Translations under genes and position numbers: made by a program
Part shown: positions 1-50,500 of the stretch, in pieces
Layout: each line of letters opens with the position of its first letter
Numbering within the stretch: position 1 is the stretch's first letter
Notes under the pieces: generated by a model
Seen by the model: only the letters and a program-made list of their open reading frames with translations
What the model was told of the DNA's origin: nothing
Databases searched by the model: none
Assembly: GCA_041650835.1 (NCBI GenBank)
Contig: JBAZKL010000001.1
Location: 171,931 to 235,930 of the forward strand
From: Candidatus Omnitrophota bacterium
GTDB taxonomy: Bacteria > Omnitrophota > Gorgyraeia > Gygaellales > Profunditerraquicolaceae
Length of the DNA stretch: 64,000 nt
Direction of reading: 5' to 3'

Positions 1-188
1 TTTCATTCATATAAGACGCCGGCTCCTTGATCAACCTTCCGGAACCAAGATATTTCTGGGGCATGGGGAAATATAAAGCTTCGAGAGTGTCCCTCTGCGC
101 TTCAAGAAGATCTAATGTTTTTGCGTTATAATTATACCCTATTGAAAATTTCATTGATTATGACCGGCGTTTGAACATTAATTATCCG

Positions 189-2225
189 CTATCTGACCCT
201 CTTTAATAAATCCACGGCTTTCCCGCTCTTGTCAAACCTAAGCACATAGCAGGGAACCTCCCGCGCTATTCTTTCCGCCACAGACAATGTCTTTTCCCAC
301 CAGTCAACAGTAACCAGAGGCTTGACTAAACACTCCAGAATTTTTTTAATTCTTTCTTTCCTGTCTTCCAAAGGTATAAGCCGATTTTCATCCGCTTTCT
401 CCAAGAACATGATCGCTCTTAACGCGGCTGAATTTGGCGATATATCCGGCACATCTCCATGGCTCCAGGTCCCGTAAATCTTAAAACCTTCGGGTTTTCT
501 TCTTATGATCATCCGGTCATCACAGAGTATTTCAGCCTTTCCCTTGAACATGGCAGCCATAGTGGATTTTCCCGCTTCGGAATGGCCGGCAAAAAGCAGG
601 CCTTTACCGTTGAAATTCACCCCGCTGGAATGCAAATAACATCCCTGCCTATCAGCTAAAACGCGCGCGATAAGCATCTGGTCCGAAGGGAACATAGTCA
701 GAGAATGTAAATTCCCCTGTAAGAACAATTCTTCCGTATCATTGTAAATTCTGCCGCGGCTGTGGTCAGCGTTAAATGACGCGACACGATGCAGCCCTTT
801 ATCCTCTGGCGCCGAAGGAATTCCCAAATATATCCACGAACCGTTATTTTTATATATTGCCCAGGGGGGCCTACGGTAAAACTCTTTGCCAAGGTCTTTA
901 TCGGCCAGGTCCGGCAGAAAAAAGTGCTGCCAAATAGAAATAGTATCTTCTCCCGGGCCATCTACTTCAAAAAGCTTGAATTTAGGGTGGAATGTATTAT
1001 TTTTGATCGGCAGATCAGATTCAACCCGCACGGTAATATCAGCGATTTTAAAGTAACGGCGGTGGAGTTTATGCCATTTTTCCCTGAACTTCCGGTTTTC
1101 TTTGGCAACGGAGCAAAGATATTCAACCTTATGGTTAAAATCCCGGGACTCAAGATACCCATAAACCGGGCAGAAACGGCAATCTTTACGCAGATCGCAA
1201 GAGCCGCAATTCTTCTTATATTCTTCTGTAATCTTAACTTTAGCTGCCAAAGAAGGGATAAATTTATCCCAACAATCCTTAAAACTGCCCTTTATTAAAT
1301 TGTAACGAAGATCAGGGTGCTTGATAAAACTGCAGAAGGTCATTTGCCCATAAGGATCAATGTGAAAATCACGCCTTAAATTTATGCAGGAGCTCAATAA
1401 CCGGCCATTTTCACTTATCATACGGCATTCGGGATCTTCCCCGTTCATCCGGTCATCATAAAACAAATCCGGTTTATCCAACTCAACGACTTTTTCAGGC
1501 GGCAGCCTCTGCCGCGTTATTTCTTTATTCCTTTCGGCATCACCGCAGGCAGACAGAAATAACCAGGCAGCGCCTATTCTATAATACTTACTGACGCGCC
1601 GGGACAACTTAACCATATCCTGAAACTGATGGTAATTATCCTTCATCGGGATTATCTGAACTATAAAACCAGCGCCGGCTTCTTTTAAGTATCGCAACCC
1701 ACGCATAGTCGCCTCAAAAGAGCCCGGGGTACGGGTTATATGATCGTGAATTTGAGCGCTTGCCCCGTAAAGCGCGACCATTTTTACCCCTTTTTTCGCC
1801 AGAAGCTTTGCTATTTTAGGAGTGATCAAAGTACCATTGGTATTTATGGAATAAGAATTGAACCTGCGGGTAAGATAATCAAAGATTTCAGGGAAATCCG
1901 GTCGCAGCAAGGGCTCACCGCCGGAGATAGACCACCTGCGGCAGCCCATTCTCCGCGCTTCATTCACAATTTCCTTAATTTGCGCTACGGCAAGTTCTTC
2001 TTTCTTTTGAGGTGAATTTACGGGGACTCTTAACCAACAATGGCGGCAATTATTATTACAACGGTAGGTAAGATCGATTTTGCCTTCTAAGGGCAAACGG
2101 GTAAACTTGTTTACTTTTATTTCTTGTGAATACTCCTGCGCCATAGTTATAGTTATACGCGGTAACCTAAGAAAATCCAATTCAAAAGCAGCCCAAGAAC
2201 CAAAGATCAAAAGAACGACCTGCAT
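189..2225 (-). CDS. Radical SAM/SPASM enzyme fused to a C-terminal HprK-like P-loop kinase domain
   Basis: N-terminal CxxxCxxC (CNNNCRHC) in TYRCNNNCRHCW. Mid-protein SPASM pattern CSFIKHPDLRYNLIKGSFKDCW ... CGSCDLRKDCRFC. C-terminal GKGLLFAGHSEAGKSTMAAMF...ILCDDRMIIRR closely matches the HPr kinase/phosphorylase C-terminal P-loop (LhhG.SG.GKS...haDD). The true start may be the internal Met (MAQEY, ~2144). Confidence 0.7.
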   Translation of the reverse strand: MQVVLLIFGSWAAFELDFLRLPRITITMAQEYSQEIKVNKFTRLPLEGKIDLTYRCNNNCRHCWLRVPVNSPQKKEELAVAQIKEIVNEARRMGCRRWSISGGEPLLRPDFPEIFDYLTRRFNSYSINTNGTLITPKIAKLLAKKGVKMVALYGASAQIHDHITRTPGSFEATMRGLRYLKEAGAGFIVQIIPMKDNYHQFQDMVKLSRRVSKYYRIGAAWLFLSACGDAERNKEITRQRLPPEKVVELDKPDLFYDDRMNGEDPECRMISENGRLLSSCINLRRDFHIDPYGQMTFCSFIKHPDLRYNLIKGSFKDCWDKFIPSLAAKVKITEEYKKNCGSCDLRKDCRFCPVYGYLESRDFNHKVEYLCSVAKENRKFREKWHKLHRRYFKIADITVRVESDLPIKNNTFHPKFKLFEVDGPGEDTISIWQHFFLPDLADKDLGKEFYRRPPWAIYKNNGSWIYLGIPSAPEDKGLHRVASFNADHSRGRIYNDTEELFLQGNLHSLTMFPSDQMLIARVLADRQGCYLHSSGVNFNGKGLLFAGHSEAGKSTMAAMFKGKAEILCDDRMIIRRKPEGFKIYGTWSHGDVPDISPNSAALRAIMFLEKADENRLIPLEDRKERIKKILECLVKPLVTVDWWEKTLSVAERIAREVPCYVLRFDKSGKAVDLLKRVR

Positions 2226-2440: not shown

Positions 2441-3760
2441 TCAATGATCCCATTTCCTTGATACCTTGTTCAACAAGTAACAAAACGAGGCCCAATGCGC
2501 CAGGCTGACCAGCGGATCACGCAAGAAAAACTTGAAATAATTATCGCATTCAACTCTCCGGCGCCTTGAAAAATAAATATCATAATAATGCTTAAGCATT
2601 GCTGAAACCGGGGGCAGCTTTCTGGTTTTCTTACCGGACAACAACTTTTCTTTTAAAAAAGCCTCCCCCCGAAGGAACAGGTAGAAAATAAATATACATA
2701 TATCGCGCGCCGGCCATACGAAAACAACCTCCCCCTTATCGGTTGATACCGGCAAAGCTACCGCCTTATTTTCGAAAAGAGACAGCGAGATCAGCGGGCC
2801 GTTCACCCCTTCCCTTACTTCCGACCAGGTCCCTTCGCTGATACGCACATTAACCTCCATCACTTTGTGCATGCCATCCCGCGCGTCAACTTTAAGCTGA
2901 ACATGGCCATAGCCGATAAATTGCTCACTCGCGAACAGCGAAACGATCTTGTTAAAATACGCAGGAAGGTTTTTCTTTATCAGCAGCAATCCAAAGTTTT
3001 GATGGATGGTCATTTCCGGCCTTTGACAAACCGCGCATGAACCCAGGAACAAAGTTCCATCCCGCCTCATGTAAACACGCGCGTACGCAATGGTATCGCC
3101 GGGGATATACTCCTGCACCACGAACTCATGAGCGCGCGCCTTGTTCTTTTGCCTCCAAGCCTCCCAATCCCCTCTGTCCTTAATAAAGCATATCCCCCGC
3201 GAGGCGCTTGCGAAACGCGGTTTGACCACAGCCACCGGGGAGGTGCTTCCCGTTTCCGGAAAACGCAGTTTATCCGCATCTTCAACAAGAAAGGTTTCCG
3301 GGCACCGAAGCCCTTGCTCCCGCGCCAGCCGTATTATGGTAAACTTATCCGCCATGCGTTTCAATACGGGATAATCGTTAACGGGGATGAAAACACCTTG
3401 TTCCTCGAATACTTTTTTGTATTTTGCCAGAATAAACACTTCCTCATCTCCGGAAGGGTATATAAGATTTACGCGCTCGCGCCGGCAAATATTTAAGATA
3501 TCATCTATGTATTCTTTTTCTGCGGCAACACAAGAACTTTCGTTCAAAGTGGTCACGCATCCGGCAGGTGATTTGCCGGTTTTTATTCTATACGTTTTAG
3601 CTATTAATCGCGAGTGTGAGGAAAACGAGAACACCCCGGGAACTATCCCATTCCCCTTGACGGTAACGATGATCCTCTCACACTGGTCAAAGAGCGCGCG
3701 GATAATGTCATATGACTGCGGCGTGCCCGGATCGGTAATTAACAGCCTCCAACGTTTCAT
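2441..3760 (-). CDS. ATP-grasp domain protein (carboxylate-amine/thiol ligase family)
   Basis: Pre-ATP-grasp N-domain (MKRWRLLITDPG...) and ATP-grasp-like central region (AVVKPRFASASRGICFIKDRGDWEAW...EFVVQEYIPGD). 4-nt overlap with the downstream gene. Confidence 0.5.
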   Translation of the reverse strand: MKRWRLLITDPGTPQSYDIIRALFDQCERIIVTVKGNGIVPGVFSFSSHSRLIAKTYRIKTGKSPAGCVTTLNESSCVAAEKEYIDDILNICRRERVNLIYPSGDEEVFILAKYKKVFEEQGVFIPVNDYPVLKRMADKFTIIRLAREQGLRCPETFLVEDADKLRFPETGSTSPVAVVKPRFASASRGICFIKDRGDWEAWRQKNKARAHEFVVQEYIPGDTIAYARVYMRRDGTLFLGSCAVCQRPEMTIHQNFGLLLIKKNLPAYFNKIVSLFASEQFIGYGHVQLKVDARDGMHKVMEVNVRISEGTWSEVREGVNGPLISLSLFENKAVALPVSTDKGEVVFVWPARDICIFIFYLFLRGEAFLKEKLLSGKKTRKLPPVSAMLKHYYDIYFSRRRRVECDNYFKFFLRDPLVSLAHWASFCYLLNKVSRKWDH

Positions 3761-4791
3761 GGCCGCTTTCCTTCTTTCTTCAACGGCTCACCCGGGAGCT
3801 CACAGAGATAAGCAATGATCCCCGGGAGAACCAACACCCAGTACTGCGAAAGCTGAAATTTGGGCAGGCCGACCAAAAAGAATATCAACCACAGGGAAAA
3901 CCACTTGATCACCGCGCCAAGACCTGCCGCCCCCTGCCGGACCTTTTCGAACAGGTAAAACAAAAAGGTGACACACGCGGACAAATAGCACAGCGTTACC
4001 ACGGCCGCCGCCCGCGCGCCCATGACCGGCAAAAGCAGATAATAAACATTCGGACTGCGAAACATCCAGGGGCTATAGAAATGCGCGGCCACCATGGATC
4101 CGCTCACCCTTGGCCCGAACAGAGCCTGCGTAAATTCCCGCGGGCCGGTAATGAAAAACGGCAAGAAGATCAAAACAATTGTCCCGGTAAAACACCAAAA
4201 ACTCTTTTTATCAACGCGCCAGAAATAAACCGAAGAAATCAACGCGAGAGGAAAATAAAACTGTTTTACCGACACAGCGCATGCCAGCGCGACCGCTGCC
4301 GCCGCAGGCAGCTTATAGCGCTCATGCAACAAAAGCGCAAGGATTATCCCGCCGGCGGCAACAATATCGTTGGATGCCGTAAACCCGGAAGTTATTTCCC
4401 GCGTGAACGGATTGAGCAAAAAAACAGCCGCAAGGAACATTCCCCAGCGCTCATCCCTGGCGCAGGCCAGCAGGCCGAACGCGGTGAACAGCGCGAAAAT
4501 AAAATTCAGCCAGCGGATATCCGCCCAACTCGCCAACAGGCTATAGCCCAATGCTCCTGCGGGTGGATAACTGTAATGCAGTGAATAAGCCGAATCGGCG
4601 GTCTTAATGATAAACGGCGACGAATAAGGATTCATCCCCTTGATTATCTTGAGCGACGCCAAGCGGTTTATTTCGTATATGTCGCTGGTATGGCCGATCG
4701 GAAATTGCCGGATATTTGCGTGAGTCAGTCCGGCGAACACTGCCACGAACGCTATTGCGATAAGCCATTTTACTAAAGCCTGCTCTTTCAC
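3757..4791 (-). CDS. Polytopic integral membrane protein (possible GT-C-like glycosyltransferase or polymerase; function unknown)
   Basis: About 10 predicted TM helices across the whole length with no soluble domain. Operonic between the ATP-grasp gene and a hypothetical gene. Confidence 0.35.
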   Translation of the reverse strand: MKEQALVKWLIAIAFVAVFAGLTHANIRQFPIGHTSDIYEINRLASLKIIKGMNPYSSPFIIKTADSAYSLHYSYPPAGALGYSLLASWADIRWLNFIFALFTAFGLLACARDERWGMFLAAVFLLNPFTREITSGFTASNDIVAAGGIILALLLHERYKLPAAAAVALACAVSVKQFYFPLALISSVYFWRVDKKSFWCFTGTIVLIFLPFFITGPREFTQALFGPRVSGSMVAAHFYSPWMFRSPNVYYLLLPVMGARAAAVVTLCYLSACVTFLFYLFEKVRQGAAGLGAVIKWFSLWLIFFLVGLPKFQLSQYWVLVLPGIIAYLCELPGEPLKKEGKRP

Positions 4792-4792
4792 G

Positions 4793-6040
4793 TCACTCCT
4801 TTACCTGGTAAATAAAATAAAACGGCCGATTATAACGGATGAGGGCCGCGCCATTCTCTGTCCTGCTGCGGTTTACCAGTAACGCAACATACATGCGCTG
4901 CGGGAACAGATCATAGGCAGAAAGATCGAACGCTCCCTGGCGGTTCGAGGGGATCCGGGCAAGGACCGGCCGGTCCGGCAGAAGAAAGTCTTTCCCGGCG
5001 GAATATAACTCAAGGGCGGTTTCTTCTCCTTCATCCATTCGCCAATCACGATCCATGACCGATTCGCCTCCGTCATAGGCCAAGGTATGCCCAAGCGGCG
5101 CGCGCGCGGGCGGAACAGGAATATTCACCACCATCTCCCCGCTGCCGTGAGACGCTTCCCAACTGATCCGGACATCCGGGATATTTACCGCCGGGATACT
5201 TTCCAAAAGAAGCGTTCGGGAAAAATTCTGTTCGCGTTCATCCCAATCCAGCGTAAAGGGTTGCGAGAAAAACGCCCCTTGCTTCACGCTCATTTTCTTT
5301 AGCTGCCGCAGCGTCACCGCTTCAAGGCGCAAGAAAACACTTTTGCCCGCCTCCAAAAATACCGCATGAACATCCGGACCGAAAGCATCATATGTCCGGG
5401 GGTGATATTCGAACATCCTGCTGGTCGCGCGGTCGCCGAGATACTTCGAAAACGCGGTGATCCTGAACACGCAGGAAGGGACCTGTTCAGGCACGAGAAA
5501 CCGCGGCCCGCACAGGTACGGGCTGGAATATATTATTTCCCCTTCCCGGTTAAAAAAATCCACCGTGTAGAATAACGCCGTCGCGCCGCCAGGCCATTCC
5601 AATAAACCACCCCGCTGTTCCACTTGTCCCACCGCGGAAACGAACAATCTGCGGGAACGCTCAACTGCCACTTCTTTCTTAAAAACAACCCCGTCCTCAA
5701 AGCAGACCTCCACATACAAATGCCGGGGCAGCGAATCATACGCGAGGCTCCCCTGAAACAGCGTTGTCCGCGGGATGTAACCGGAGCGCTCGCCGGTAAG
5801 CGGACCTATAACCTGTCCGGCTTCGTTCTTCAGCACTGCCCGCGTAATGCCGAGCTTATACGCCGGCTTCACCAGTACCACGAGGCGCTTGCCGGCATCA
5901 GCAAATACATGCAGCGCAGGCTTAACCAATATGATCCTTGGAGAAGGATCAAAAAAATACAAACGGATCCCTATAAAAAAAATGAAAAGGAATATAGCTG
6001 TATATTTAAGCGCAGGCTTCATTTTAATCATGCCGAGCAA
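4793..6040 (-). CDS. Membrane-anchored hypothetical protein (single N-terminal TM, large extracytoplasmic domain)
   Basis: N-terminal hydrophobic helix (AIFLFIFFIGIRLYFF), no recognisable motifs, tightly packed in the operon. Confidence 0.4.
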   Translation of the reverse strand: MLGMIKMKPALKYTAIFLFIFFIGIRLYFFDPSPRIILVKPALHVFADAGKRLVVLVKPAYKLGITRAVLKNEAGQVIGPLTGERSGYIPRTTLFQGSLAYDSLPRHLYVEVCFEDGVVFKKEVAVERSRRLFVSAVGQVEQRGGLLEWPGGATALFYTVDFFNREGEIIYSSPYLCGPRFLVPEQVPSCVFRITAFSKYLGDRATSRMFEYHPRTYDAFGPDVHAVFLEAGKSVFLRLEAVTLRQLKKMSVKQGAFFSQPFTLDWDEREQNFSRTLLLESIPAVNIPDVRISWEASHGSGEMVVNIPVPPARAPLGHTLAYDGGESVMDRDWRMDEGEETALELYSAGKDFLLPDRPVLARIPSNRQGAFDLSAYDLFPQRMYVALLVNRSRTENGAALIRYNRPFYFIYQVKE

Positions 6041-7470
6041 GCCGTCCTATAAACAAATTTTAATTTCTCACCGAGAGGAAAACGCGATATTCTCAAGGCC
6101 AAAACATATATTACGCCGGCAACGGACATCTTCAGCAAAAAATAGCCCATCGTTACCGGAAAGACCGCATTCATCCCGAGCAGGCACAGGACCATGACGG
6201 TCGAAGCGGCAATCACCGGCCATACATTCCGCAGATATATCTTTGCGGACACGCCGATCAGGCGGTTGGTTGCCGTAATGATCACCGGAAAATAGATCAG
6301 CTCCGCGAGCGTGACCGCCGCGGCTATACCGGCAATGCCGTAACGCCGGCCGATGAGAATTGCGCTGCAACTGACCAGGCAATAAAAGACCCCCCAGCGC
6401 CAGGTAAGGTCCGGCCTTCCCTTGGCATAAAAGATCGCCCTGATTATACCTCTGCGCAGCGTTTGCAGCAAGCCGTTCACGCAGAGTATCCGCAGCGCGT
6501 CTGCCGCGTTAAGCCATTTCCCGCCGAACAAGAACAAGATAACGTCTGTTGCGTTGACACAAACCGCCAGATGCAAGGGAACGCTCAATAAAGCCATGCC
6601 CTGGATGACTTTTAAATAAAACTCACCGAACAACGCGTTTTCATCGCGCATCCTGCTCAACGCCGGAAATAATACCCGGTAAAACACCGGCGCGGCCTGG
6701 TAGTAAAAATAATTGGAAACCGAATAGGCAAAATAATAGTAACCCATCGCCGCAACACCCAGGAATTTACTGATGATCAGAAAATCAAGATTAGCGCCGA
6801 TATAATTAAGGATCTCCGCGCCGAAAACATTTTTCCCGAAGCGGAGCATTTCTTTCAGCCTCCCGGCTTCAAAGCCAAGGGCCGGTTTCCACTCACTCGC
6901 CCGCCAGCTTAATAAACAGAGTACCGCGCTCTTGAGTACCAGCGCCCACACCAGGCTCCAAACGTTGCGAGTAAGAAACGCGATGCCCCCCCCGGCTACT
7001 CCATAGACGATCACCCCTGCCACCTGGGGGATCACGAGCCGTTTATAAGCCAGCTTTCTGCTTATGACCGCTTCGAAAATAGAGGTCAACGAATCGAAAA
7101 CAAAAGTGACGGAAAGCACCCTTAAGATCGCAGTCAACGGAGGATTGTGGAAGAAGCCCGCGATAAACGGGGCAACGATCACGGTGATCAAAGCCGCTAC
7201 CGTCGCGCTCGCCAGGTAAGAAGAAAAAGCGGTAACAAGATGCCGCTCATCCGTATCATCATTCTGAACCAGCGCTTCCGGTAAACCGAATCCCTGCAGC
7301 AGGACCTGGATACATTTAATATAGATATACGCGGTCGTGATCGTCCCGAAATGCTCCGGCAGCAATAACCGGGCAAGGATAATTGCCGAGACAAACTGTA
7401 TCACCTGGGAAATGATTTGCCCCAGGCTTACCCAGGTGAATCCCTGGGCGACTTTTTGCCGCATATTCAC
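6028..7470 (-). CDS. wzx: Wzx-type oligosaccharide flippase (MOP/polysaccharide biosynthesis protein family)
   Basis: 480 aa, ~12-14 TM helices. N-terminus MNMRQKVAQGFTWVSLGQIISQVIQFVSAIILARLL is typical of Wzx/RfbX. Confidence 0.75.
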   Translation of the reverse strand: MNMRQKVAQGFTWVSLGQIISQVIQFVSAIILARLLLPEHFGTITTAYIYIKCIQVLLQGFGLPEALVQNDDTDERHLVTAFSSYLASATVAALITVIVAPFIAGFFHNPPLTAILRVLSVTFVFDSLTSIFEAVISRKLAYKRLVIPQVAGVIVYGVAGGGIAFLTRNVWSLVWALVLKSAVLCLLSWRASEWKPALGFEAGRLKEMLRFGKNVFGAEILNYIGANLDFLIISKFLGVAAMGYYYFAYSVSNYFYYQAAPVFYRVLFPALSRMRDENALFGEFYLKVIQGMALLSVPLHLAVCVNATDVILFLFGGKWLNAADALRILCVNGLLQTLRRGIIRAIFYAKGRPDLTWRWGVFYCLVSCSAILIGRRYGIAGIAAAVTLAELIYFPVIITATNRLIGVSAKIYLRNVWPVIAASTVMVLCLLGMNAVFPVTMGYFLLKMSVAGVIYVLALRISRFPLGEKLKFVYRTACSA

Positions 7471-7519
7471 GATCGATCACCCCGCACGGTTTTAGCTTCA
7501 ACCAAAATTCATAGTATCC

Positions 7520-8506
7520 CTAATCCAGCAATCGAAGCAAAGAAACACACGACGCACAAATCTTTTCATCGCAGCGGCCCTGCCGCCGGAAACCAGTCCC
7601 CGGGAAACTCCCCGCGTCAAGATCATCCTTATGAACATCGCCTGCCGGCGGAAAATTACGGCAGCGATAGGCTTCGCCGTCCGCGTTCACAAATAACGAA
7701 CGCGCAGGAACAAAGCAACGGCCATCCACGCGCCCCGTTTCCAGGTAACGGATCAATCTTTGCGTCACCAAGCCGTTCCCCAGGGGATTGCGCCTGACGC
7801 TGCGCAGCGCTTGCCGTATCGCGCGCTTCTGCTCAGGGCTGAAAACAAAAGTACCGTTCTTTGAATTTTCTTCAAAATGCAGTGCATTGGTATATGACTT
7901 ATTATTTTCAACTATTTTAAAAACAAAACGCATACGCTTTTGCCGGAAATAGGCGGCAGCGCGTTCAATATCATCGTAGTTCCAGGGAGTAATGACAAAC
8001 TTCGCCTGTAAACCGGCCCAAGGGAATTTTTGTTGTATCAGAGCGATCGAATGTTGCGTTTGTCGCAACGCGCCCGGGGTCCGCGTCAAGCGGTCATGCG
8101 ATTGCAGCCCGTGAATGCTTAATTCCAGGACCAGACGCCGGTCGATCTTTATCCCCGTTAAAAAGTCACCTATCTCGCCGGTAAGCGTGCCGTTTGAAGA
8201 TATGAGCAGCGTCGATTTAGGAAACAATGACCGGGCATGAGAATAGAGCGAGCTCAGGTCCTTTCGCAAAAAAGGCTCGCCGCCGGTAAAGGTGATGTGT
8301 CGCGTTTTTTCGAGTGAGGGATGCTTGAGTACCCGCGTAACGGCATCACTTGATAGCTCATCACTACATTCGCCGTTTCTTTCCCATATATCGCACATGC
8401 GGCACTTCAAATTACACGCAGTGGTCAACGCAAGAGTAACCGAGGTAATTTCCAACCGGCCAAGATATGCGAGCAGGCAATTTTTAATCCGTTTCAATGT
8501 CTCCAT
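7520..8506 (-). CDS. Radical SAM protein with C-terminal SPASM/twitch-like Cys cluster
   Basis: CNLKCRMC near the N-terminus, GGEPFLRKD glycine-rich SAM motif, C-terminal CFVPARSLFVNADGEAYRC...CDEKICASC. Confidence 0.75.
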   Translation of the reverse strand: METLKRIKNCLLAYLGRLEITSVTLALTTACNLKCRMCDIWERNGECSDELSSDAVTRVLKHPSLEKTRHITFTGGEPFLRKDLSSLYSHARSLFPKSTLLISSNGTLTGEIGDFLTGIKIDRRLVLELSIHGLQSHDRLTRTPGALRQTQHSIALIQQKFPWAGLQAKFVITPWNYDDIERAAAYFRQKRMRFVFKIVENNKSYTNALHFEENSKNGTFVFSPEQKRAIRQALRSVRRNPLGNGLVTQRLIRYLETGRVDGRCFVPARSLFVNADGEAYRCRNFPPAGDVHKDDLDAGSFPGTGFRRQGRCDEKICASCVSLLRLLD

Positions 8507-8518
8507 ATTTTACGTCTT

Positions 8519-9577
8519 TCAACAGTCCGCGCGGGCACCGCAAAACCAGCTCCGTGGATTGCAGGCCTTCCTCATAACCCTTTGAAATACCGCTTCGTCT
8601 TGATAGTCGAAATATATCCGGGAAGCTATCCCGCTAAAAGCAAGCTCCGCGGCGCGCATCAACTTCCAGTACTTGCCTCCCTCAAAACAGTTATTGCGCA
8701 CGATCGCGCGGATATTCTCGTGCTTTTCCACGAACCGGCAGAATGCCCCCGTTTCAGCCGCCGTTTCCCGGCAGACGATAAAGATCAATTCCGTGATCTT
8801 ATCTTTTGGCCCCAGAAGCATCGTGATATTACGCATCACCCGTTCAAAATTATCCGCCCCCGTAACGGCACGATATGTTTGCCGGCTCATCCCGTAGAGA
8901 GAAACGGTAACGCCAATACCGCTTGAGATCCGGCCGAAGGTATCTAATAATATCCCGTTAGTAAGAATATGCAGCCTTTTCTCCGGGTAATGAGCGATCA
9001 CCCATTCAATGAATTCCCGCGTAACCGGCGCAAAAAGCGGTTCCCCTCCGGAAACAATGATATCCCGGGCCGCGGGTACCAGATCCTCCTTTATCTCTTT
9101 CATCAGCTCCTCGGATAACTGAGCGCATTGGCGGCGCCGGCGCATCCCGGACTGATAGCAAAAAGAACAATTATTGTTACAGGTAAAAGAAGGAACAACC
9201 ACGAGCATCGGCGGCGCGTAGTCAAGCTGAACCACTTTGTTCTTAAGAGCGTGCTTAACCGGATCATGGGCGGTGAAAGGGAAAAACGGGTCACGGCAAC
9301 AGTTCGCCCCGCGGCAAAAATCCCACGAACCACGGGAGATCATTGTCCTCTGAAACCGGAACTGCTTTGCATTCCAGGCTTCCCTGACCCCTTTTTTAAC
9401 GACCACCCGGTTCCCCGGGATAAACACATTGCTGAAACACGTGCTCAGTTGGGCTGCGCCCTGCTCCGCGGGAGAGATCTCTAACCGGTAATAGCCGCGG
9501 TGGCAGCGATACGGCTTTGTTTCGCCGGTATTTCCCCGAAAGATTGTCCGCGACACCAGTTGGAAATCCTTTATCAT
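8519..9577 (-). CDS. Radical SAM protein with ~125-aa Cys-rich N-terminal domain (paralog A)
   Basis: CNNNCSFC at ~aa 133, GGEP motif (VSGGEPLFAP). N-domain has C..YY...SP...STC...WNA..F..QR...G.W..C..G.C..PFF, which is conserved in the adjacent paralog. Confidence 0.7.
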   Translation of the reverse strand: MIKDFQLVSRTIFRGNTGETKPYRCHRGYYRLEISPAEQGAAQLSTCFSNVFIPGNRVVVKKGVREAWNAKQFRFQRTMISRGSWDFCRGANCCRDPFFPFTAHDPVKHALKNKVVQLDYAPPMLVVVPSFTCNNNCSFCYQSGMRRRRQCAQLSEELMKEIKEDLVPAARDIIVSGGEPLFAPVTREFIEWVIAHYPEKRLHILTNGILLDTFGRISSGIGVTVSLYGMSRQTYRAVTGADNFERVMRNITMLLGPKDKITELIFIVCRETAAETGAFCRFVEKHENIRAIVRNNCFEGGKYWKLMRAAELAFSGIASRIYFDYQDEAVFQRVMRKACNPRSWFCGARADC

Positions 9578-10695
9578 TCTGATCGGCCCTTTTGGGTAAC
9601 CTTAAGCGTTGGGTAAAAATACCGCGTGGTATAATACGGATCATACAACTTCTGTAACAACTTATCAGAAAAGGTTTCCCGGCAGTAACTGAATTTCAAA
9701 CGGGATGAAATACGGGCAAAGCGTGTTTCAAGTGAGCGCATCAAACCTTTGAATTTATTGCCGTCGGCGGAATTATTCCTTACGACGCCTTTCAAACGCC
9801 CCTCCGATTCGATGAATTGGCAAAATTGCATCGCCTCTGCCGCCGTAGTTCTCGAAACGATGAACGTCAAGTTTAAATTCTCACAGCCACAGGCAAGAAG
9901 TTGCGTAATAGCCCCCCAGGCGGCGTCAAAATAACCGGTCCCCGTTGTGTTCTTATATGTCTGCCGGCACATCCCGTAGAGAGAGATCACCGGGAATATA
10001 TTCGGACGGAGGACCTTCTCAATGCCAAATGCCTGCAAAAGCGTACCATTGGTAAGTATGGTGAGCTTTTTTTCCGGGAAATCCGTTATCATCCAGCGGA
10101 TAAGCTTCTGCGCGCACGCGGAGAAAAAAGGCTCGCCTCCGGAAACAACTATTTCCTGCGCTGACGGAACGACTTCTTCCCTCAGTTCTTTGAGGATGCC
10201 TTCGGAGAGCTGATAACAGCTGCCTCTATGGCCTTCTTTCCCATTATAGCAGAAAAAACAATTATTATTGCAAGCCAGAGACGGGATAATGTAAACTTTT
10301 TTGGCAAAATAACCCAGCTTTGTTCCACCGGTAAGGATGGCCTTGCCCACATCGGGATTATCGCCGATAAATTCTTTTTCCTGGAAAAAAGGATTAAAAA
10401 AACAATCTCCCGCTTTCCAGCAATAACTCCAATCGCCCTTACGCGTCAATGCCCTCTGGACCTGAAATTCCCGGGCGTTCCACGACGCGCAGATCCCGGC
10501 AGATACGATCCTGCGGTTCTTCGTCAGAAAAGCATTCTTGCAGCAGGTCGAAACCATCACCCGCCGCTCATCAACGGGAGACACCCACAGCGTATAATAG
10601 CAGGAATAACAATGCTTCAAATTCCCCATATCATTACTTAAACTCCCCATGCGATCAATAACAGTATTGTTATGATCATTCTTTCCCGTAAACAC
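9574..10695 (-). CDS. Radical SAM protein with Cys-rich N-terminal domain (paralog B, tandem duplicate)
   Basis: CNNNCFFC, VSGGEPFFSA. Colinear similarity to 8519..9577 throughout (ILTNG.LL..FG, SLYGM.RQTY, VRNN). 4-nt overlap with paralog A. Confidence 0.7.
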   Translation of the reverse strand: MFTGKNDHNNTVIDRMGSLSNDMGNLKHCYSCYYTLWVSPVDERRVMVSTCCKNAFLTKNRRIVSAGICASWNAREFQVQRALTRKGDWSYCWKAGDCFFNPFFQEKEFIGDNPDVGKAILTGGTKLGYFAKKVYIIPSLACNNNCFFCYNGKEGHRGSCYQLSEGILKELREEVVPSAQEIVVSGGEPFFSACAQKLIRWMITDFPEKKLTILTNGTLLQAFGIEKVLRPNIFPVISLYGMCRQTYKNTTGTGYFDAAWGAITQLLACGCENLNLTFIVSRTTAAEAMQFCQFIESEGRLKGVVRNNSADGNKFKGLMRSLETRFARISSRLKFSYCRETFSDKLLQKLYDPYYTTRYFYPTLKVTQKGRSE

Positions 10696-12112
10696 ATGCC
10701 GTTGAATATCCCTGTTTGAATCCTTTAAGCGGTTTCCAGCCGTATTTATCGATATATCGCTTCAGGTCCCGGGAATTATCCGACTGAGGCGAATAAACGA
10801 TTATATCCAGATCGTCATTATTGACCCGAAACCACGCATTCACCGCGTCAAGTGAGGGCTTATCAAAGAGTTCCCGCACGATAAGCGGCTTTTTCACATA
10901 CCCCAGTTCCGGATAACGTAAGGCCGAGGTTAACGGCCAGGACGCCGCGATGATCGCGCGCGGATAATTCCGCTCGACAAACCGCGCTGCCGCGGCGTGG
11001 ACATTCACGCAAGCTACATAGGACATATTCCGTTCCAGGCGGGCACCGCTGCCGAATGGTTCTTGCTCTTTCAACGGGAAAAAGCAAGATACCAGCAGGA
11101 AAACGACCGCGCCGGCCGCCAGCACGCGTCCGCCGTGCCGGGGAACGCCTTCTATGAGCATGACCGAGGCGGTAATAGCCAAGAAGGGATACAGCGGCAG
11201 CCAGTAACGGGGTATATTGATCTCGTATATGCTATAGAATAAGAACGATCCCGCGAGAAACGTCGCGCTCAGCAGGAGAAAACGAAGAGGATTGTCCTCC
11301 AACGGCTTTCGCGGCGAACGGATGGACCTCATGAGCAAAAAAACCATCGTTACCTGCGCCAACGGGCTGTCCGCAATGAACATTCCAGCCGTACGCGTCA
11401 ATACCCGCAGGTCCATTCCTGAAAGCGGGCGGACATGCCCGATATAGAACTCCCAAACCGCCTGCGTTATCCATAACGGCTTCAGGCAAACAAGCAAAAC
11501 GATGATCACCATGGTAAAGGAAAAAAAGATCCCATAGTATCTTTTACGCTGCTGCCGGTCGATCATCGCTAAGAGCGCCAATGCCAGGGCTATCATAACA
11601 GCGCCCAACACTCCGTTCTCCTTTGAAGCGGCTGCGGCTGTCAATGCGGCGATAAAAAGCCCCTTATTGCCGCTCATGAGCGCGTAAACCGTCAAAACCA
11701 TAAACAACGTCACGAGCATTTCGGGCAGCACCAGAACGCTTTGCGCGTAAAACAAAGGAGCGCACGCGAGTAATACCAGCGCGTAGACAGCGGTGTCCCT
11801 GGTAAAAAGAAGTGCCGCGAGTTTGTAGGTATAGAACAACGTTGCCGCCGCGCAGAGCATACTGAACAAATGGAAAAACGATATTGACATACCGAATATA
11901 CCGGCAATGCTTTTGAGTATAAAATGAAAAAGTGTTTTTCTTTCCGGAAAAGACTGCGCGGCAGCACCGACATAGGCAAGCTCATCCCAGTGCGGCAAAA
12001 CGTTTAATACAGGAACCTTGCTCAGAATGAATATCCCCAGGATATAGAATACCCCGGACGGATAAGTATCGCCGCCATTTTTGTCTTTGCTGGAATTATT
12101 CCGCGAACCCAT
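10676..12112 (-). CDS. GT-C fold membrane glycosyltransferase (GT39/GT83, PMT/ArnT-like)
   Basis: Polytopic N-terminal half with a first-loop DE motif (PHWDELAYV) and a C-terminal soluble domain. Start re-set to ATG at 12110..12112 (MGSRNN...), because the track ORF (to 12454) overlaps the upstream gene that stops at 12114. Confidence 0.6.
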   Translation of the reverse strand: MGSRNNSSKDKNGGDTYPSGVFYILGIFILSKVPVLNVLPHWDELAYVGAAAQSFPERKTLFHFILKSIAGIFGMSISFFHLFSMLCAAATLFYTYKLAALLFTRDTAVYALVLLACAPLFYAQSVLVLPEMLVTLFMVLTVYALMSGNKGLFIAALTAAAASKENGVLGAVMIALALALLAMIDRQQRKRYYGIFFSFTMVIIVLLVCLKPLWITQAVWEFYIGHVRPLSGMDLRVLTRTAGMFIADSPLAQVTMVFLLMRSIRSPRKPLEDNPLRFLLLSATFLAGSFLFYSIYEINIPRYWLPLYPFLAITASVMLIEGVPRHGGRVLAAGAVVFLLVSCFFPLKEQEPFGSGARLERNMSYVACVNVHAAAARFVERNYPRAIIAASWPLTSALRYPELGYVKKPLIVRELFDKPSLDAVNAWFRVNNDDLDIIVYSPQSDNSRDLKRYIDKYGWKPLKGFKQGYSTACVYGKE

Positions 12113-12113
12113 A

Positions 12114-13400
12114 TTATTTTGTAAAATAGATCCTTTTTGACTGCGCAACGGCGACAATATTGCCTTTGCCGGCCGCGGTCCGGTTAAACGCCCAGATCTC
12201 CGCGCATAATCTTTCCCCTGCTGCCCCGACTCCGTCAAGCTCCATCCTGGAACTGAGGGTTGAACGCCTGGCTGCCAGAAAAAGCAGCCCCCTGCTGTTT
12301 TCACGATAAACGTCAACTCTGTATTCTGAAGCTCCGGATACCGGCTGCCATACCACGCGTTGCTCCTGTCCGTCATACCTGATCCCCTGCGCAGGCAAAA
12401 TATCATGCCTTGCCCCGATGAAAACCCTTTCTTCCTGAACACGTAAAGAAGCATCCCGTATCGTCAGCGTATACTCACCCGGCGACAGCGCCTGCATGAG
12501 CTGCACCCTGAATACCGAAAGCATCGTATTAAAGGCTGCCTCCCAACGCCTGCCCCGCGCGTCCTTTATAAAAACCGACCTGACCGAGCCCGGATTATTT
12601 ATCGCCGCGTCAAAAAACATTGTTTTTTTAGTGCCTTCAAGAAAGTCGCAGCTGGTTACCGGTTTGATACGCCACGAAAATATATCCGCCTCCCCCCCCG
12701 TGAACGTAAAAGAATATTCTCCCGACAGGGCGGAATTTGCCGCGAGATAATATTCGCTTTTTTCCCGCGACTGCGTCAACATCGTATCAAAGCCTCTGAG
12801 CCTTACAAAATATTTTTGCCCTTCTTTAAACCTGCGTTGATCAAGGAACAAGACGCACTCGTCAGACTCTCTCACCGGACAGTACATCTGCCGGTATACC
12901 GGCCTTCCGCGGTAGTCATAGAATTGCAGGGAGTAACTCACCACACTTTCATCATTCTTCCAAAGAATATATCCATTCCTGAAATCAAGGCGCTCCGGTA
13001 AAACAATGCTGCGATACTGCCAATAGATACTTTCCCGCTGTACTTCGCCGTTTCGGTACTTAAGGGCCAATTCATATTTCCCGGGGCCCATCGGGAGCCC
13101 CGGAGTTCCCCGGGAACGATACCTGTTTTTAAACCCGGGAACCGAAGTAAAATCGCCTGCCGTAAGTTTTACCGGCGCGCTTACTGAAGGAGGGACCAAA
13201 ACGATCGAGGTTATTTCCGGAAGTTTTCTCACCGAAGAAAAAATAACATGAACAGAGCTCTTACCGTTGTTTTGTTCCGAAAGAAGAGAGAAATCCAGCC
13301 GATGATGCGTCCCGGCGGGACTCCCCGACAAAAACGCCCATGCAGCGCTGGTGAACAGCGCGGCGGACAGAAAACCATACGCCAAAACATTCCTTTTCAT
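12114..13400 (-). CDS. Secreted hypothetical protein (signal peptide)
   Basis: N-terminal MKRNVLAYGFLSAALFTSAAWAF signal peptide, no recognisable catalytic motifs, stop abuts the start of the GT-C gene. Confidence 0.5.
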   Translation of the reverse strand: MKRNVLAYGFLSAALFTSAAWAFLSGSPAGTHHRLDFSLLSEQNNGKSSVHVIFSSVRKLPEITSIVLVPPSVSAPVKLTAGDFTSVPGFKNRYRSRGTPGLPMGPGKYELALKYRNGEVQRESIYWQYRSIVLPERLDFRNGYILWKNDESVVSYSLQFYDYRGRPVYRQMYCPVRESDECVLFLDQRRFKEGQKYFVRLRGFDTMLTQSREKSEYYLAANSALSGEYSFTFTGGEADIFSWRIKPVTSCDFLEGTKKTMFFDAAINNPGSVRSVFIKDARGRRWEAAFNTMLSVFRVQLMQALSPGEYTLTIRDASLRVQEERVFIGARHDILPAQGIRYDGQEQRVVWQPVSGASEYRVDVYRENSRGLLFLAARRSTLSSRMELDGVGAAGERLCAEIWAFNRTAAGKGNIVAVAQSKRIYFTK

Positions 13401-47525: not shown

Positions 47526-50500
47526 TCATCCGATCTTCACTTCCACTGAATGCTCTACCCGATCATCAATGAGCTGTACCGCCATTTCCTTCTGCGCGAC
47601 ACCATCCACCTCAATAGACGTCAAACGGCCTGACGGTCCCAAACACACAAATGTAATGTGATAAAAAGTCTCCCTGTATCGGTAATGCAGCTTCCAAGAA
47701 GTCCAGCCCGCGGGAAGACACGGCTCGAAATAGATCCTGTCCACTTTCAACCGAATCCCCAGTAAATACTTCACGATAAGCTGATACATCCAACCGGCGG
47801 ATCCGGTGTACCATGTCCATCCACCGCGTCCGGTGAGGCCGGCAGAGGCATACACATCCGCCGCCATCACGAACGGCTCCACCTTGTAAACAGCGCACTT
47901 ATCCGCAGTATCGCAATGACGCACCGGGTTGATCATATCGAACAACTCCCAGGCCCGTTTTTTATCACCCAATACCGCGAACGCGATCGCCGCCCAGATC
48001 GCAGCATGCGTGTACTGTCCCCCGTTCTCCCTCACTCCGGGGACATAGCCTTTGATGTATCCCGGGTTAGGAAAAGCCTTATCAAAAGGAGGATCGAACA
48101 ATCTCACGAGCGCGTGCTTCCTGTCGACAAGCTGCCGGTCCACCTGCTCCATGGCCTTTCGGGCTCTGTCCCCCTGAGCCGCGCCCGAAAGAACCGCCCA
48201 GGATTGCGGGATCGAATCGATCCGGCATTCGCTGTTCAAGGAAGAACCCAAAGGTTCCCCATTGTCAAAATAGGCCCGGCGATACCATTGCCCGTCCCAG
48301 CCATACTTTTCAATATTCTTGGAAAGCTTCTCTGACTCCTCAACACAGAATTCCGAAAAAACCTTATCCTCACGCTGAGCTGCCAGGGCCGCCATCGACT
48401 TAAGGACATCGAAAAGAAAAAAAGCAAGCCAAACGCTTTCGCCTTTTCCTTCGCGCCCGACCAGATTCATCCCGTCATTCCAGTCACCGCTTCCCATAAG
48501 AGGAAGGCCATGAACGCCGAACTGCAAACCTCTTTTCACGCTTAAAACACAATGTTCATAAAGTGTCCCGGTACGAGCGGAGATTCTCGGCATATCGTAG
48601 TAAGATTCTTCTCCCTGCTTGACCAGGGGCCCTTCCAGGAACCCAGCAATTTCATCAAGGATCCCTGTATCCCCGATATTTTCGACATACAGGCAGGTCA
48701 CCAACGGAAGCCATAAATAATCATCCGAACACAGACTACGGACCCCCCGGCCGGAAGGCGGATGCCACCAGTGCTGCACATCTCCCTCCACAAACTGGCG
48801 CGCGGCAAAGCTCAGCAATTGTTCCCGGACCATTTCCGGCTTCGAATGGAGGAGCGCCATCACATCCTGGAGCTGGTCCCGGAAGCCGAAAGCCCCGCCG
48901 GATTGATAAAAACCGCTTCGGCCCATGAGGCGTGAGCTTATGAGCTGATATTGCAGCCATCCGTTGACGAGAAAATTGATCGAGGCATCGGAGGTTTCCA
49001 CATACACAACGCCCAGGGTACGTTTCCAGTATTCCCACACCCTTTCAAGCTCCTGACGTGCCGCCTCGACACCGCCAAAACGCCGGACGAGGTCCCGCGC
49101 CTCGTCCATCGTTCTCCCGGATCCAAAAGTAAAAACTATCTCTTTCTGCTGACCATCCTCTATTTCAAACTTCACCTGCGTGGCAACGCACGGATCAATC
49201 CCCGCGCCCACTTTTCCGGAAAGCCTATCCCTTCGCATCACGGAAGGCGATCGCATAGTGCCGTTCCTTCCGATAAATTCGATCCGGTCCCCGGTCACGA
49301 ATCGCGCCGGTTCGCTCACATCCAAAAAAACAGCGCGGGCAGGGAATTCCTTGTTATAAGGATTACGGGCGAACAGGGCGCCGCTTTTAGGGTCGACCTC
49401 GGTAAGGATATGCATGTGGTATTTATCCCGAGAAGGCCCCATGACCAGCTCATAGTACGACGTCACGGACAGGCGCCTGCGGCGGCCGGAAATATTCCTG
49501 ATCTTCAGGGCAGAGAATTTGACTCGGTCCTCCAGGGAAACGAATACCGTTAACTCCGAAACAATCCCGTTTTCGACATGCTCAAAAACGCTGTACCCGA
49601 ATCCATGGCGCGAGGTGTAACCGGCCTCGCCCCGAGCGGGTAGCGGGGTCGGTGACCAAAATCTCCCGCTCTCCTCATCGCGAATATAGAGCGCCTCTCC
49701 CGAAGCGTCCGTAACAGGATCGTTCTTCCAAGGCGTTAAACGAAATTCATGCGCGTTCTCGCTCCAGGTAAAAGCGCTGCCGCTTTCGGAAACCACCGTG
49801 CCGAAATGCCGGTTCGCCAACACATTTACCCACGGAGCGGGAGTGGTCTTCGAGCGCGAGGTCATGATCACATATTCCCGACCATCCCCGGTAAACCCTC
49901 CCAAGCCATTAAAGTAAACCAGATGAGAGCGCTCTGCGGGATCCCGGGGCTCTTCTTCCGGATCATCTTTCCTGGTGGGAACAAATGGAAGAAAATGCGC
50001 CTTGGGCTGTGTCATATCCGTCAACTGCTCCGTCAGCGTACCCCCGCGGTCAGAAATAATGATCCGCGCGGCCGTTTGCATGAGGATCCGGTCCTCATCC
50101 GACATCTGATCGGCGCGCCTTAAAAAAATACCTCCGTTACGGCCGGCTTGTTCCTTGGTATTGGCAACGATCAACCCGCTGATCCTCTCACCCAGACTAT
50201 CACGATAAATAGAACTATCTTCATTCCATATAAGAAGATCGACCGCCAGTCCTTTCATCTGCCAATAGGCATGGGCTTGCACCATCTGCACGACGAGATC
50301 GATATTGTCCTGATTTTCGATGCGGACGAGGACGATCGGGAGGTCCCCCGAAATACTGTATCCCCAAAGATCGGGCTGGCCCCGGTTATTCCGCCGCAAA
50401 ATACTCGCGCTCGCCCGCCAGGCGGGATTGGCGTACACAATAGCGCTGGTCAGACGGCCGTAGAGCTGAGCGGCCGCCTCCGTCGCATTGATCTGTTGCA

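Follow-up and report, generated by a model that had tools for sequence, protein, structure and literature searches.

What does a radical S-adenosylmethionine (SAM) enzyme do on the same polypeptide as a kinase-like P-loop module? The question is raised by one gene at the left end of a 64,000-nucleotide stretch of contig JBAZKL010000001.1 (assembly GCA_041650835.1, positions 171,931 to 235,930) from a Candidatus Omnitrophota bacterium. This whole stretch is called the window, and coordinates are those of the window unless another locus is named. The gene lies on the minus strand, and the left edge of the window is its downstream side. Its product joins an N-terminal radical SAM enzyme with a SPASM domain to a C-terminal module of the ScmC family. 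Judged from the sequences, the protein is most reasonably read as a bifunctional maturase of peptides that are made on ribosomes and modified after translation (RiPPs). The best explanation of the whole, with a probability of about 0.55, is that the ScmC part phosphorylates the terminal Ser of a precursor peptide and the radical SAM/SPASM part modifies its Cys.

Of the two halves, the N-terminal one is a radical SAM/SPASM enzyme of a type that modifies peptides. The Pfam radical SAM model PF04055 (gathering threshold 29.5 bits) is passed at 91.1 bits, and the Cys of the CX3CX2C motif (C29, C33, and C36 in the numbering of a protein of 651 amino acids [aa]) are invariant in an alignment of 38 fused homologs. 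SPASM domains are characterized by a seven-Cys motif, CX9-15GX4C - gap - CX2CX5CX3C - gap - C. Seven Cys (C253, C271, C313, C316, C322, C325, and C344), each at least 90% conserved in the same 38 homologs, form the series CX12GX4C ... CX2CX5CX2C ... C, which agrees with that pattern except that the final spacing is one residue shorter. The score on the SPASM model TIGR04085 is 22.3 bits, below its cutoff of 27, and a hidden Markov model scan of the fusion protein gave no match to Pfam SPASM (PF13186). The best NCBIfam matches of this half are AhbD, NirJ2, MftC, ScmF, ScmE, PqqE, and AlbA, all far under equivalog cutoffs. The full-length AlphaFold model superposes on SuiB, SkfB, anSME, BlsE, PqqE, and CteB, and the N-terminal 360 aa match the folds of peptide-modifying radical SAM/SPASM enzymes with E values of 8e-13 to 1e-9. 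SuiB, SkfB, anSME, PqqE, and CteB have the same fold, CX3CX2C motif, and seven-Cys SPASM motif, and PqqE relies on a partner of the PqqD type, a RiPP recognition element (RRE), as the fusion protein does. In contrast to other peptide-modifying enzymes of this type, the fusion has no N-terminal RRE domain, its RRE being a separate gene, and none of the radical SAM/SPASM enzymes that have been solved or described carries a C-terminal module with the fold of phosphoenolpyruvate carboxykinase (PEPCK) and HPr kinase (HprK). The initial annotation, which proposed a radical SAM enzyme with a full SPASM domain, is borne out by the PF04055 score, ten conserved Cys, and the fold superposition, with the SPASM model score remaining below threshold.

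The C-terminal 289 aa constitute a ScmC-family P-loop module with the PEPCK/HprK fold, in which nucleotide-binding and catalytic-site residues are conserved. A match to Pfam ScmC (PF27840) without any mark of weakness is recorded for an identical public protein (P0001) and for all 120 top homologs, an assignment that rests on precomputed annotation. When aa 390-678 were compared alone with NCBIfam, the best match was ScmC (TIGR04249; 36.5 bits, E 3.4e-9, equivalog cutoff 125), followed by HprK-related kinase B (TIGR04355; 31.3 bits, E 1.1e-7, cutoff 200), HPr(Ser) kinase/phosphatase (TIGR00679; 20 bits, E 2.9e-4, cutoff 240), and HprK-related kinase A (E 0.015). Pfam Hpr_kinase_C (PF07475) fails, since the unit reaches 14-16 bits where the gathering score is 33.3. 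A profile of 76 unit sequences returned bare P-loop matches to ABC transporters among PDB sequences, whereas longer matches were only to HPr kinases (1jb1/2qmh at 3.5e-4, 3tqf, and 1ko7). Homology to the HprK/PEPCK P-loop fold at the superfamily level is well supported by these comparisons. Measured by curated thresholds, the protein belongs to the radical SAM superfamily and to Pfam ScmC but is neither an HPr kinase/phosphorylase (HprK/P), nor an equivalog of the catalogued SynChlorMet (SCM) cassette, nor a lasso-type kinase.

The putative active site of the module is conserved. Residues G520, S522, G525, K526, S/T527, and T528 are kept in 70-74 of the 76 stand-alone homologs and in 35-38 of the 38 fused ones; an acidic residue, D or E, occupies position 542 in 69 and position 543 in 74 of 76 sequences, and R544 is present in 69 of 76. 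H505, the Walker A motif, and D542-D543-R544, the counterparts of the HprK active site, are retained in fused and stand-alone relatives, and even relatives at 25-30% identity still have the Lys/Ser/Thr of Walker A, the His upstream of it, and the Asp-Asp-Arg series. An invariant Asp (D488) and a GTW motif are specific to the ScmC family. No catalytic role is assigned to the beta-rich N-lobe. With this residue pattern, the module is probably an active phosphotransferase. The unit has in common with HprK/P the fold of its P-loop lobe and the succession of active-site motifs (His, Walker A, acidic pair); however, it fails the PF07475 and TIGR00679 thresholds, the HprK N-terminal domain is absent from the fusion, and carbon catabolite control is not the context of the gene. 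The ATP- and GTP-dependent PEP carboxykinases have 8-12% identity to ScmC and no family match at the sequence level; ScmC is about half their size, and its genomic setting is peptide maturation. The motifs quoted in the initial annotation, GHSEAGKST and LCDDR, are present. The kinase-like part, put there at about 150 aa, comprises 289 aa (390-678) and is two-lobed and PEPCK-like, and the proposed HprK_C-type character holds for the P-loop fold and active-site series but not for the Hpr_kinase_C threshold.

The union of the two halves is genuine and widespread. The gene is one open reading frame (ORF) of 678 codons with no internal stops, and the homologs, of about 650 aa, align with 100% coverage from M28 (MAQEYSQ...), so that the true start is likely the ATG at 2142-2144, giving a protein of 651 aa. 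P0001, the identical public protein, is encoded on an 868-kb metagenome contig and is annotated with PF04055 and PF27840; public databases hold many such fused proteins, named “radical SAM protein.” All of the top 120 database clusters are of about 650 aa, with full coverage and 64-74% identity. A scan of one genome per species yielded 79 loci with the same fused architecture, both in bacteria (Omnitrophota, Aminicenantes, Acidobacteriota, Desulfobacterota, Chlorobiaceae, Anaerolineae, WOR-1, WOR-3, Saganbacteria, and Margulisiibacteriota) and in methanogens (Methanothrix, Methanolinea, and Methanospirillum), with a single cultured strain among them, Desulfofustis glycolicus DSM 9705 (locus L071). 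An assembly or sequencing artifact, which has a negligible probability, is ruled out by the uninterrupted ORF, the more than 120 database clusters, and the 79 independent genomes, and is contradicted by the continuous, confidently modeled secondary structure at the junction. The same homologs and loci confirm that one gene, not two misread genes, is present, as had been supposed; the minus strand had gone unstated. In the AlphaFold model (predicted local distance difference test score 90.4, predicted template modeling score 0.80), the last SPASM helix (341-361) runs directly into the first ScmC strand (362) without a linker, and the halves are modeled as rigidly fused. A structure search found no solved PDB structure spanning both halves.

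The same module also occurs alone. An exhaustive search with the 289-aa unit recovered 5,831 relatives (166 at E <=1e-30), and among the best 150 of these, stand-alone proteins of about 290-320 aa are mixed with fused ones and reach 56% identity over the whole unit. Fused and split states are interleaved in a neighbor-joining tree of ScmC units, a crude tree that suggests at least 19 fusion/fission switches and establishes only the interleaving. This is a Rosetta-stone pattern, by which ScmC and a radical SAM/SPASM enzyme are partners in function and probably also physically; a physical complex of the two would be predicted in split systems too. A metagenome scan with a single stand-alone ScmC protein (P0137) gave no match. 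The pairing of ScmC with radical SAM/SPASM and PqqD proteins is already catalogued in family names, and because ScmD, ScmE, and ScmF are named in the same NCBIfam cassette as ScmC, the fusion joins partners known to co-occur. The architecture, described initially as unplaceable, is therefore not a new one: its C-terminal unit is Pfam ScmC (PF27840), and the fusion is found in 79 or more species-level genomes across many bacterial phyla and methanogens. The present analysis newly delineates a conserved cassette with three radical SAM genes, the relation of fused to split forms, and a precursor family with a Ser terminus and fixed spacing. As side observations, the fused gene of locus L140 (1116-3213) is frameshifted inside the ScmC unit, probably by a sequencing error in what appears to be a long-read assembly; two copies of the fusion gene are found at some loci (L015, L035, and L061); and additional, much more divergent HprK/ScmC-like paralogs lie nearby in L063 (5528-6643), L081 (1621-2556), L035 (3374-4279), and L046 (6609-7289).

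Most of the cassette to which the gene belongs lies past the left edge of the window, which stops 188 nt after the fusion gene; for this reason the cassette was invisible to the initial annotation. On the window contig and in other genomes, the conserved genes are the fusion, a second radical SAM gene, a PqqD gene, a protease gene of the S24/signal-peptidase-I-like type, and a third radical SAM gene. The second radical SAM/SPASM protein retains 50-71% identity across phyla and is usually encoded immediately downstream of the fusion. The PqqD protein is about 100 aa long, an ABC exporter is often included, and an NTP_transf_5 nucleotidyltransferase adjoins the cassette in roughly 40% of loci. 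The window contig extended past its left edge (locus L001) holds the second radical SAM gene, PqqD, two YcaO-TPR proteins, a precursor, the S24-like peptidase, and the third radical SAM gene, together with a secreted 276-aa protein. Precursor genes, a PqqD/RRE protein, and a radical SAM/SPASM enzyme are thus co-located, the gene content expected of a RiPP pathway with an RRE-dependent radical SAM maturase, and the fusion is very probably, on gene content, the maturase of this RiPP cassette, which is akin to SynChlorMet yet distinct. Stand-alone cassettes have the orders ScmC-rSAM-PqqD-S24 (L085) and NTP_transf_5-ScmC-PqqD-S24 (L083), in which rSAM denotes a radical SAM gene, and a divergent stand-alone subfamily from soil has PqqD-rSAM-precursor-ScmC(-S24).

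The precursors are small ORFs beside the fusion in L001-L003 that have a leader and a core rich in Cys in common. The profile derived from these matched 103 ORFs distributed over 61 of 82 loci; 96 share the strand of the fusion, and tandem arrangements are frequent, with one to ten precursor genes per cassette. The leader consensus is KKKW-x-KP-x-L-x-VL-x-R-x-x-PEE-x-VL-x-x-CK (motif W/YxxPxL...PEExVLxxCK), followed by a Gly/Ser/Cys-rich core. A C-terminal Ser ends 93 of 102 distinct precursor peptides, as compared with 9.7% of the other small ORFs of the same loci. Cores have three Cys in 82 of 100 precursors, the last two Cys are separated by two or three residues in 86 of 100, and exactly six residues follow the last Cys (C-x5-S) in 73 of 100 precursors of fused cassettes. 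In an independent metagenome set, Ser is the final residue of 13 of 15 precursors from fused loci, and the stretch that follows the last Cys is six residues long in 12 of 15; for stand-alone loci, Ser is final in 30 of 31, and in 24 of 31 the same stretch is five residues long with a Gly-Ser end (C-x3-G-S). The metagenome precursors pooled end in Ser in 43 of 46 cases. A database search with the precursor profile, made independently of ScmC, returned at least 1,214 members, all named “hypothetical protein” and without a Pfam domain; the best 120 of the 1,214 end in Ser (117) or Thr (3), a count made slightly circular by the terminal Ser column of the profile itself. The three exceptions all being Thr, the hydroxyl is kept. 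No NCBIfam model matched the precursor peptides. The one encoded on the window contig, which reads MKKKKWKKPKL...CSWQTSS, is listed at NCBI as a hypothetical protein from a metagenome-assembled genome of Candidatus Omnitrophota; the Desulfofustis glycolicus peptide of L071 ends in QGRSGGVS. When loci were looked up from the precursor, ScmC was present in four of six informative cases (L136, L137, L140, and L141). The profile had no match in the short stand-alone contigs L083-L086, which offer little flanking sequence. Tandem precursor arrays are long in some loci (10 genes in L087, 8977-16612; at least 8 in L138, 3-2592), and in L138 Thr termini are common in place of Ser.

Two known systems resemble this cassette. 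The SCM system is described by the NCBIfam models TIGR04249, TIGR04248, TIGR04250, and TIGR04251, which cover ScmC, ScmD (a PqqD relative), and the radical SAM/SPASM enzymes ScmE and ScmF. The same protein types are thus found in one cassette, and ScmC is the best match of the C-terminal unit. However, the neighboring radical SAM proteins score 81-87 bits on ScmE and 66-69 on ScmF (cutoffs 400 and 400), with heme-pathway radical SAM models equal or better, the PqqD protein scores 27.5 bits on ScmD against a cutoff of 100, and, with ScmC itself at 36.5 against 125, all scores are far under the equivalog cutoffs. Because the partners score so low, the cassette is a relative of SynChlorMet and not SynChlorMet itself. 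It also differs in that ScmC is fused to an additional, third radical SAM/SPASM domain, the S24-like peptidase is conserved, and a precursor family can be assigned. To our knowledge, the SCM precursor has never been identified, nor has the SCM cassette been studied experimentally; a literature search on SynChlorMet returned no paper.

The lasso-peptide kinases of the paeninodin and pseudomycoidin type likewise combine an HprK-fold protein with a PqqD-type RRE, often a nucleotidyltransferase, and a precursor ending in Ser. In lasso systems the terminal Ser is the phosphorylation site: HPr-kinase homologs phosphorylate the C-terminal Ser hydroxyl of the precursor, largely irrespective of the remaining peptide sequence, and in pseudomycoidin a neighboring nucleotidyltransferase adds hexoses to the Ser phosphate (PMC8498205, a review). 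In contrast to lasso loci, the gene and Pfam tables of L001-L003 list neither a lasso cyclase (Asn-synthase-like) nor a B2 protease; the partners are radical SAM enzymes, the score on HprK-related kinase B is 31 bits against 200, and ScmC has its own beta-rich N-lobe. Literature searches on HPr kinase with radical SAM RiPPs returned only the lasso remark or general review, and those on radical SAM RiPPs of Omnitrophota only general surveys of biosynthetic gene clusters.

A working mechanism can be proposed from these parts. The PqqD protein would bind the precursor leader, and the radical SAM/SPASM domains would install crosslinks at Cys, most likely of the thioether type, while ScmC would phosphorylate the terminal Ser. 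Where present, NTP_transf_5 may decorate the phosphate further, as in pseudomycoidin; the protease would then remove the leader and the ABC transporter export the product. In the rigid fusion, a single polypeptide would hold the C-terminal Ser in the kinase site and present the nearby Cys to the radical SAM site, and this rigidity, taken with the fixed Cys-to-Ser spacing, suggests that a single bound tail undergoes both events, much as the initial annotation proposed for one substrate. By analogy with lasso systems, the Ser ends of the precursors suggest that the kinase-like half phosphorylates the last Ser, and because an HprK-fold protein, a PqqD-type RRE, a frequent nucleotidyltransferase, and a Ser terminus are common to both, this is the best-supported hypothesis for ScmC. 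Taken on its own, the analogy by which the terminal Ser is the target of ScmC is tentative, at slightly below even odds.

Several observations weigh against this reading. The scores on HprK and HprK-related models are so far below the family cutoffs that kinase chemistry is an extrapolation across the superfamily, to which PEPCK and the phosphorylase activity of HprK/P belong as well. Every ScmC cassette has at least one radical SAM enzyme, and co-occurrence therefore cannot assign the terminal Ser to the kinase-like module rather than to radical SAM chemistry. Locus L135 has a Ser-terminated precursor with PqqD and radical SAM genes and no ScmC within 7 kb, and L139 holds an orphan precursor. 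The peptides of L045 and most of those of the archaeal L068 end in neither Ser nor Thr although their ScmC motifs are intact, so that precursors without terminal Ser show no correlation with degenerate kinase motifs. On the contig of the window itself, NTP_transf_5 is not near the fusion, and the precursor gene is 8 kb away from it. The circularity in the profile count has been mentioned, and the literature searches yielded no paper on the cassette, the fusion, or the family of precursors, nor on the biochemistry of any ScmC protein. Some of these points would fit a docking or clamp domain. ScmC could, with or without nucleotide, recognize the C-terminal tail and present the core to the radical SAM sites, the Ser serving as a recognition element or as acceptor of a radical SAM crosslink from the Cys that lies five or six residues upstream, with no phosphorylated product. 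The fixed spacing from the last Cys to Ser suits a ring or a ruler as well as a kinase site, a radical SAM enzyme to which the Ser could belong is in every cassette, L135 retains the Ser without ScmC, and the beta-rich N-lobe is free of an assigned catalytic role. Such a domain is nevertheless an unlikely explanation, since a purely structural function hardly accounts for the persistence of the Walker A, His, and Asp-Asp-Arg residues down to 25-30% identity, and the hydroxyl is kept even in the three Thr exceptions.

Somewhat less likely again is that phosphorylation by ScmC is transient and activates the Ser, the phosphate being eliminated to dehydroalanine (for a lanthionine-like ring with Cys or cleavage to a C-terminal amide) or passed to NTP_transf_5, with a mature product that bears no simple phosphate. 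The frequent adjacency of NTP_transf_5, the pseudomycoidin precedent, and a Cys-to-Ser spacing suited to ring closure are consistent with this; yet the conserved cassette has no lyase or elimination domain that could be seen, NTP_transf_5 is absent from many loci, that of the window included, and the present data do not separate transient from stable phosphorylation. A very improbable reading assigns the fusion gene to the polysaccharide/lipid cluster upstream of it, with the PEPCK-like module acting on a small molecule or sugar phosphate. That region (window 2441-12454, minus strand) encodes an ATP-grasp protein with a PylC-like N-terminal part, two membrane proteins, a Polysacc_synt_3 flippase, three radical SAM proteins, and a PMT_2 glycosyltransferase. 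None of these genes is conserved beside the fusion in the other 81 loci, whereas the second radical SAM gene, PqqD, the S24 peptidase, the third radical SAM gene, and the precursors are, and the cassette occurs in unrelated phyla with different flanks; membership in the upstream glycan/ATP-grasp cluster was rejected on these grounds. Phosphorylation of the terminal Ser by ScmC, coupled to modification of Cys by the radical SAM/SPASM domains, is retained as the preferred reading.

The features of the fusion gene and its neighbors are collected in the table.

Table. Coordinates, strand, and basis of the features of the fusion gene and neighboring genes in the 64,000-nucleotide window
Feature	Position	Strand	Basis or remark
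Whole ORF (678 codons; N-terminal extension probably untranslated)	189..2225	-	Stop codon 189-191
Radical SAM core (aa 52-207 of the ORF)	1605..2072	-	PF04055, 91.1 bits, E 1.1e-25
CX3CX2C motif (CNNNCRHC), binds the SAM-cleaving [4Fe-4S] cluster	2037..2060	-	Direct sequence reading
SPASM-type auxiliary-cluster domain, seven conserved Cys	1113..1388	-	Cys conservation, TIGR04085, fold matches
ScmC unit (aa 390-678, 289 aa): beta-rich N-lobe and P-loop lobe, PEPCK/HprK fold	192..1058	-	
Walker A/P-loop GHSEAGKST	561..587	-	Direct sequence reading
LCDDR, counterpart of the HprK “ADD” catalytic/Mg2+ acidic pair	513..527	-	Direct sequence reading
Start of next gene downstream (467-aa protein)	1..154, continuing L001 12057-13460	-	Runs off window
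Three upstream radical SAM genes	7520-8506, 8519-9577, 9574-10695	-	

The 467-aa protein encoded next downstream has a weak Peptidase_U32-like N-terminal half (21.2 bits, cutoff 22.4) and a TPR C-terminal half, and its gene is inserted between the fusion and the second radical SAM gene in the window contig only. The two YcaO-TPR fusions (L001 15957-17957 and 17962-19989; YcaO E 1e-51) lie in tandem inside the cassette, and YcaO homologs are also found near the fusion in L005, L017, L023, and L035; their presence hints that some variants perform additional backbone chemistry (azoline or thioamide). In the soil stand-alone subfamily, the cassette (L136 8175-14174; L137 8142-14180) or the orphan precursor (L139 9558-12917) is followed by a Peptidase_C25/CLIPPER-repeat protein of giant size (1,100 to more than 3,000 aa), which may be a processing or target protein. 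A scan around the fusion gene found no more promoter or terminator signals than in shuffled sequence, and an Rfam scan of the whole window found no family, tRNA included, at gathering score. The long ORFs of the window (1-64000) are almost all on the minus strand, among them a giant ORF of 2,929 aa (47526-56315).

For the ScmC family, the locus provides a testable lead in RiPP enzymology, one that will not surprise a specialist acquainted with the SCM and lasso-kinase systems. It supplies for experiment a precursor family with a leader and a near-invariant Ser, a complete gene set, and a cultured organism, Desulfofustis glycolicus DSM 9705. The widest extrapolation is doubtful: that ScmC modules define a large, phylogenetically broad, and hitherto unrecognized class of RiPPs, with at least 1,214 precursor clusters from bacteria and methanogenic archaea, and that ATP-dependent modification of the near-invariant terminal Ser is linked mechanistically in this class to a radical SAM crosslink at the Cys that lies five or six residues upstream. 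The rigid fusion would then act as a molecular ruler that grips both sites of the tail simultaneously, and the phospho-Ser might be a handle for glycosyl or nucleotidyl decoration by NTP_transf_5. If the preferred reading is correct, phosphorylation or phosphate-dependent tailoring would be added to the repertoire of radical SAM RiPPs, and a first function would be given to the ScmC family and to SCM-like cassettes, which have been catalogued in databases for years.

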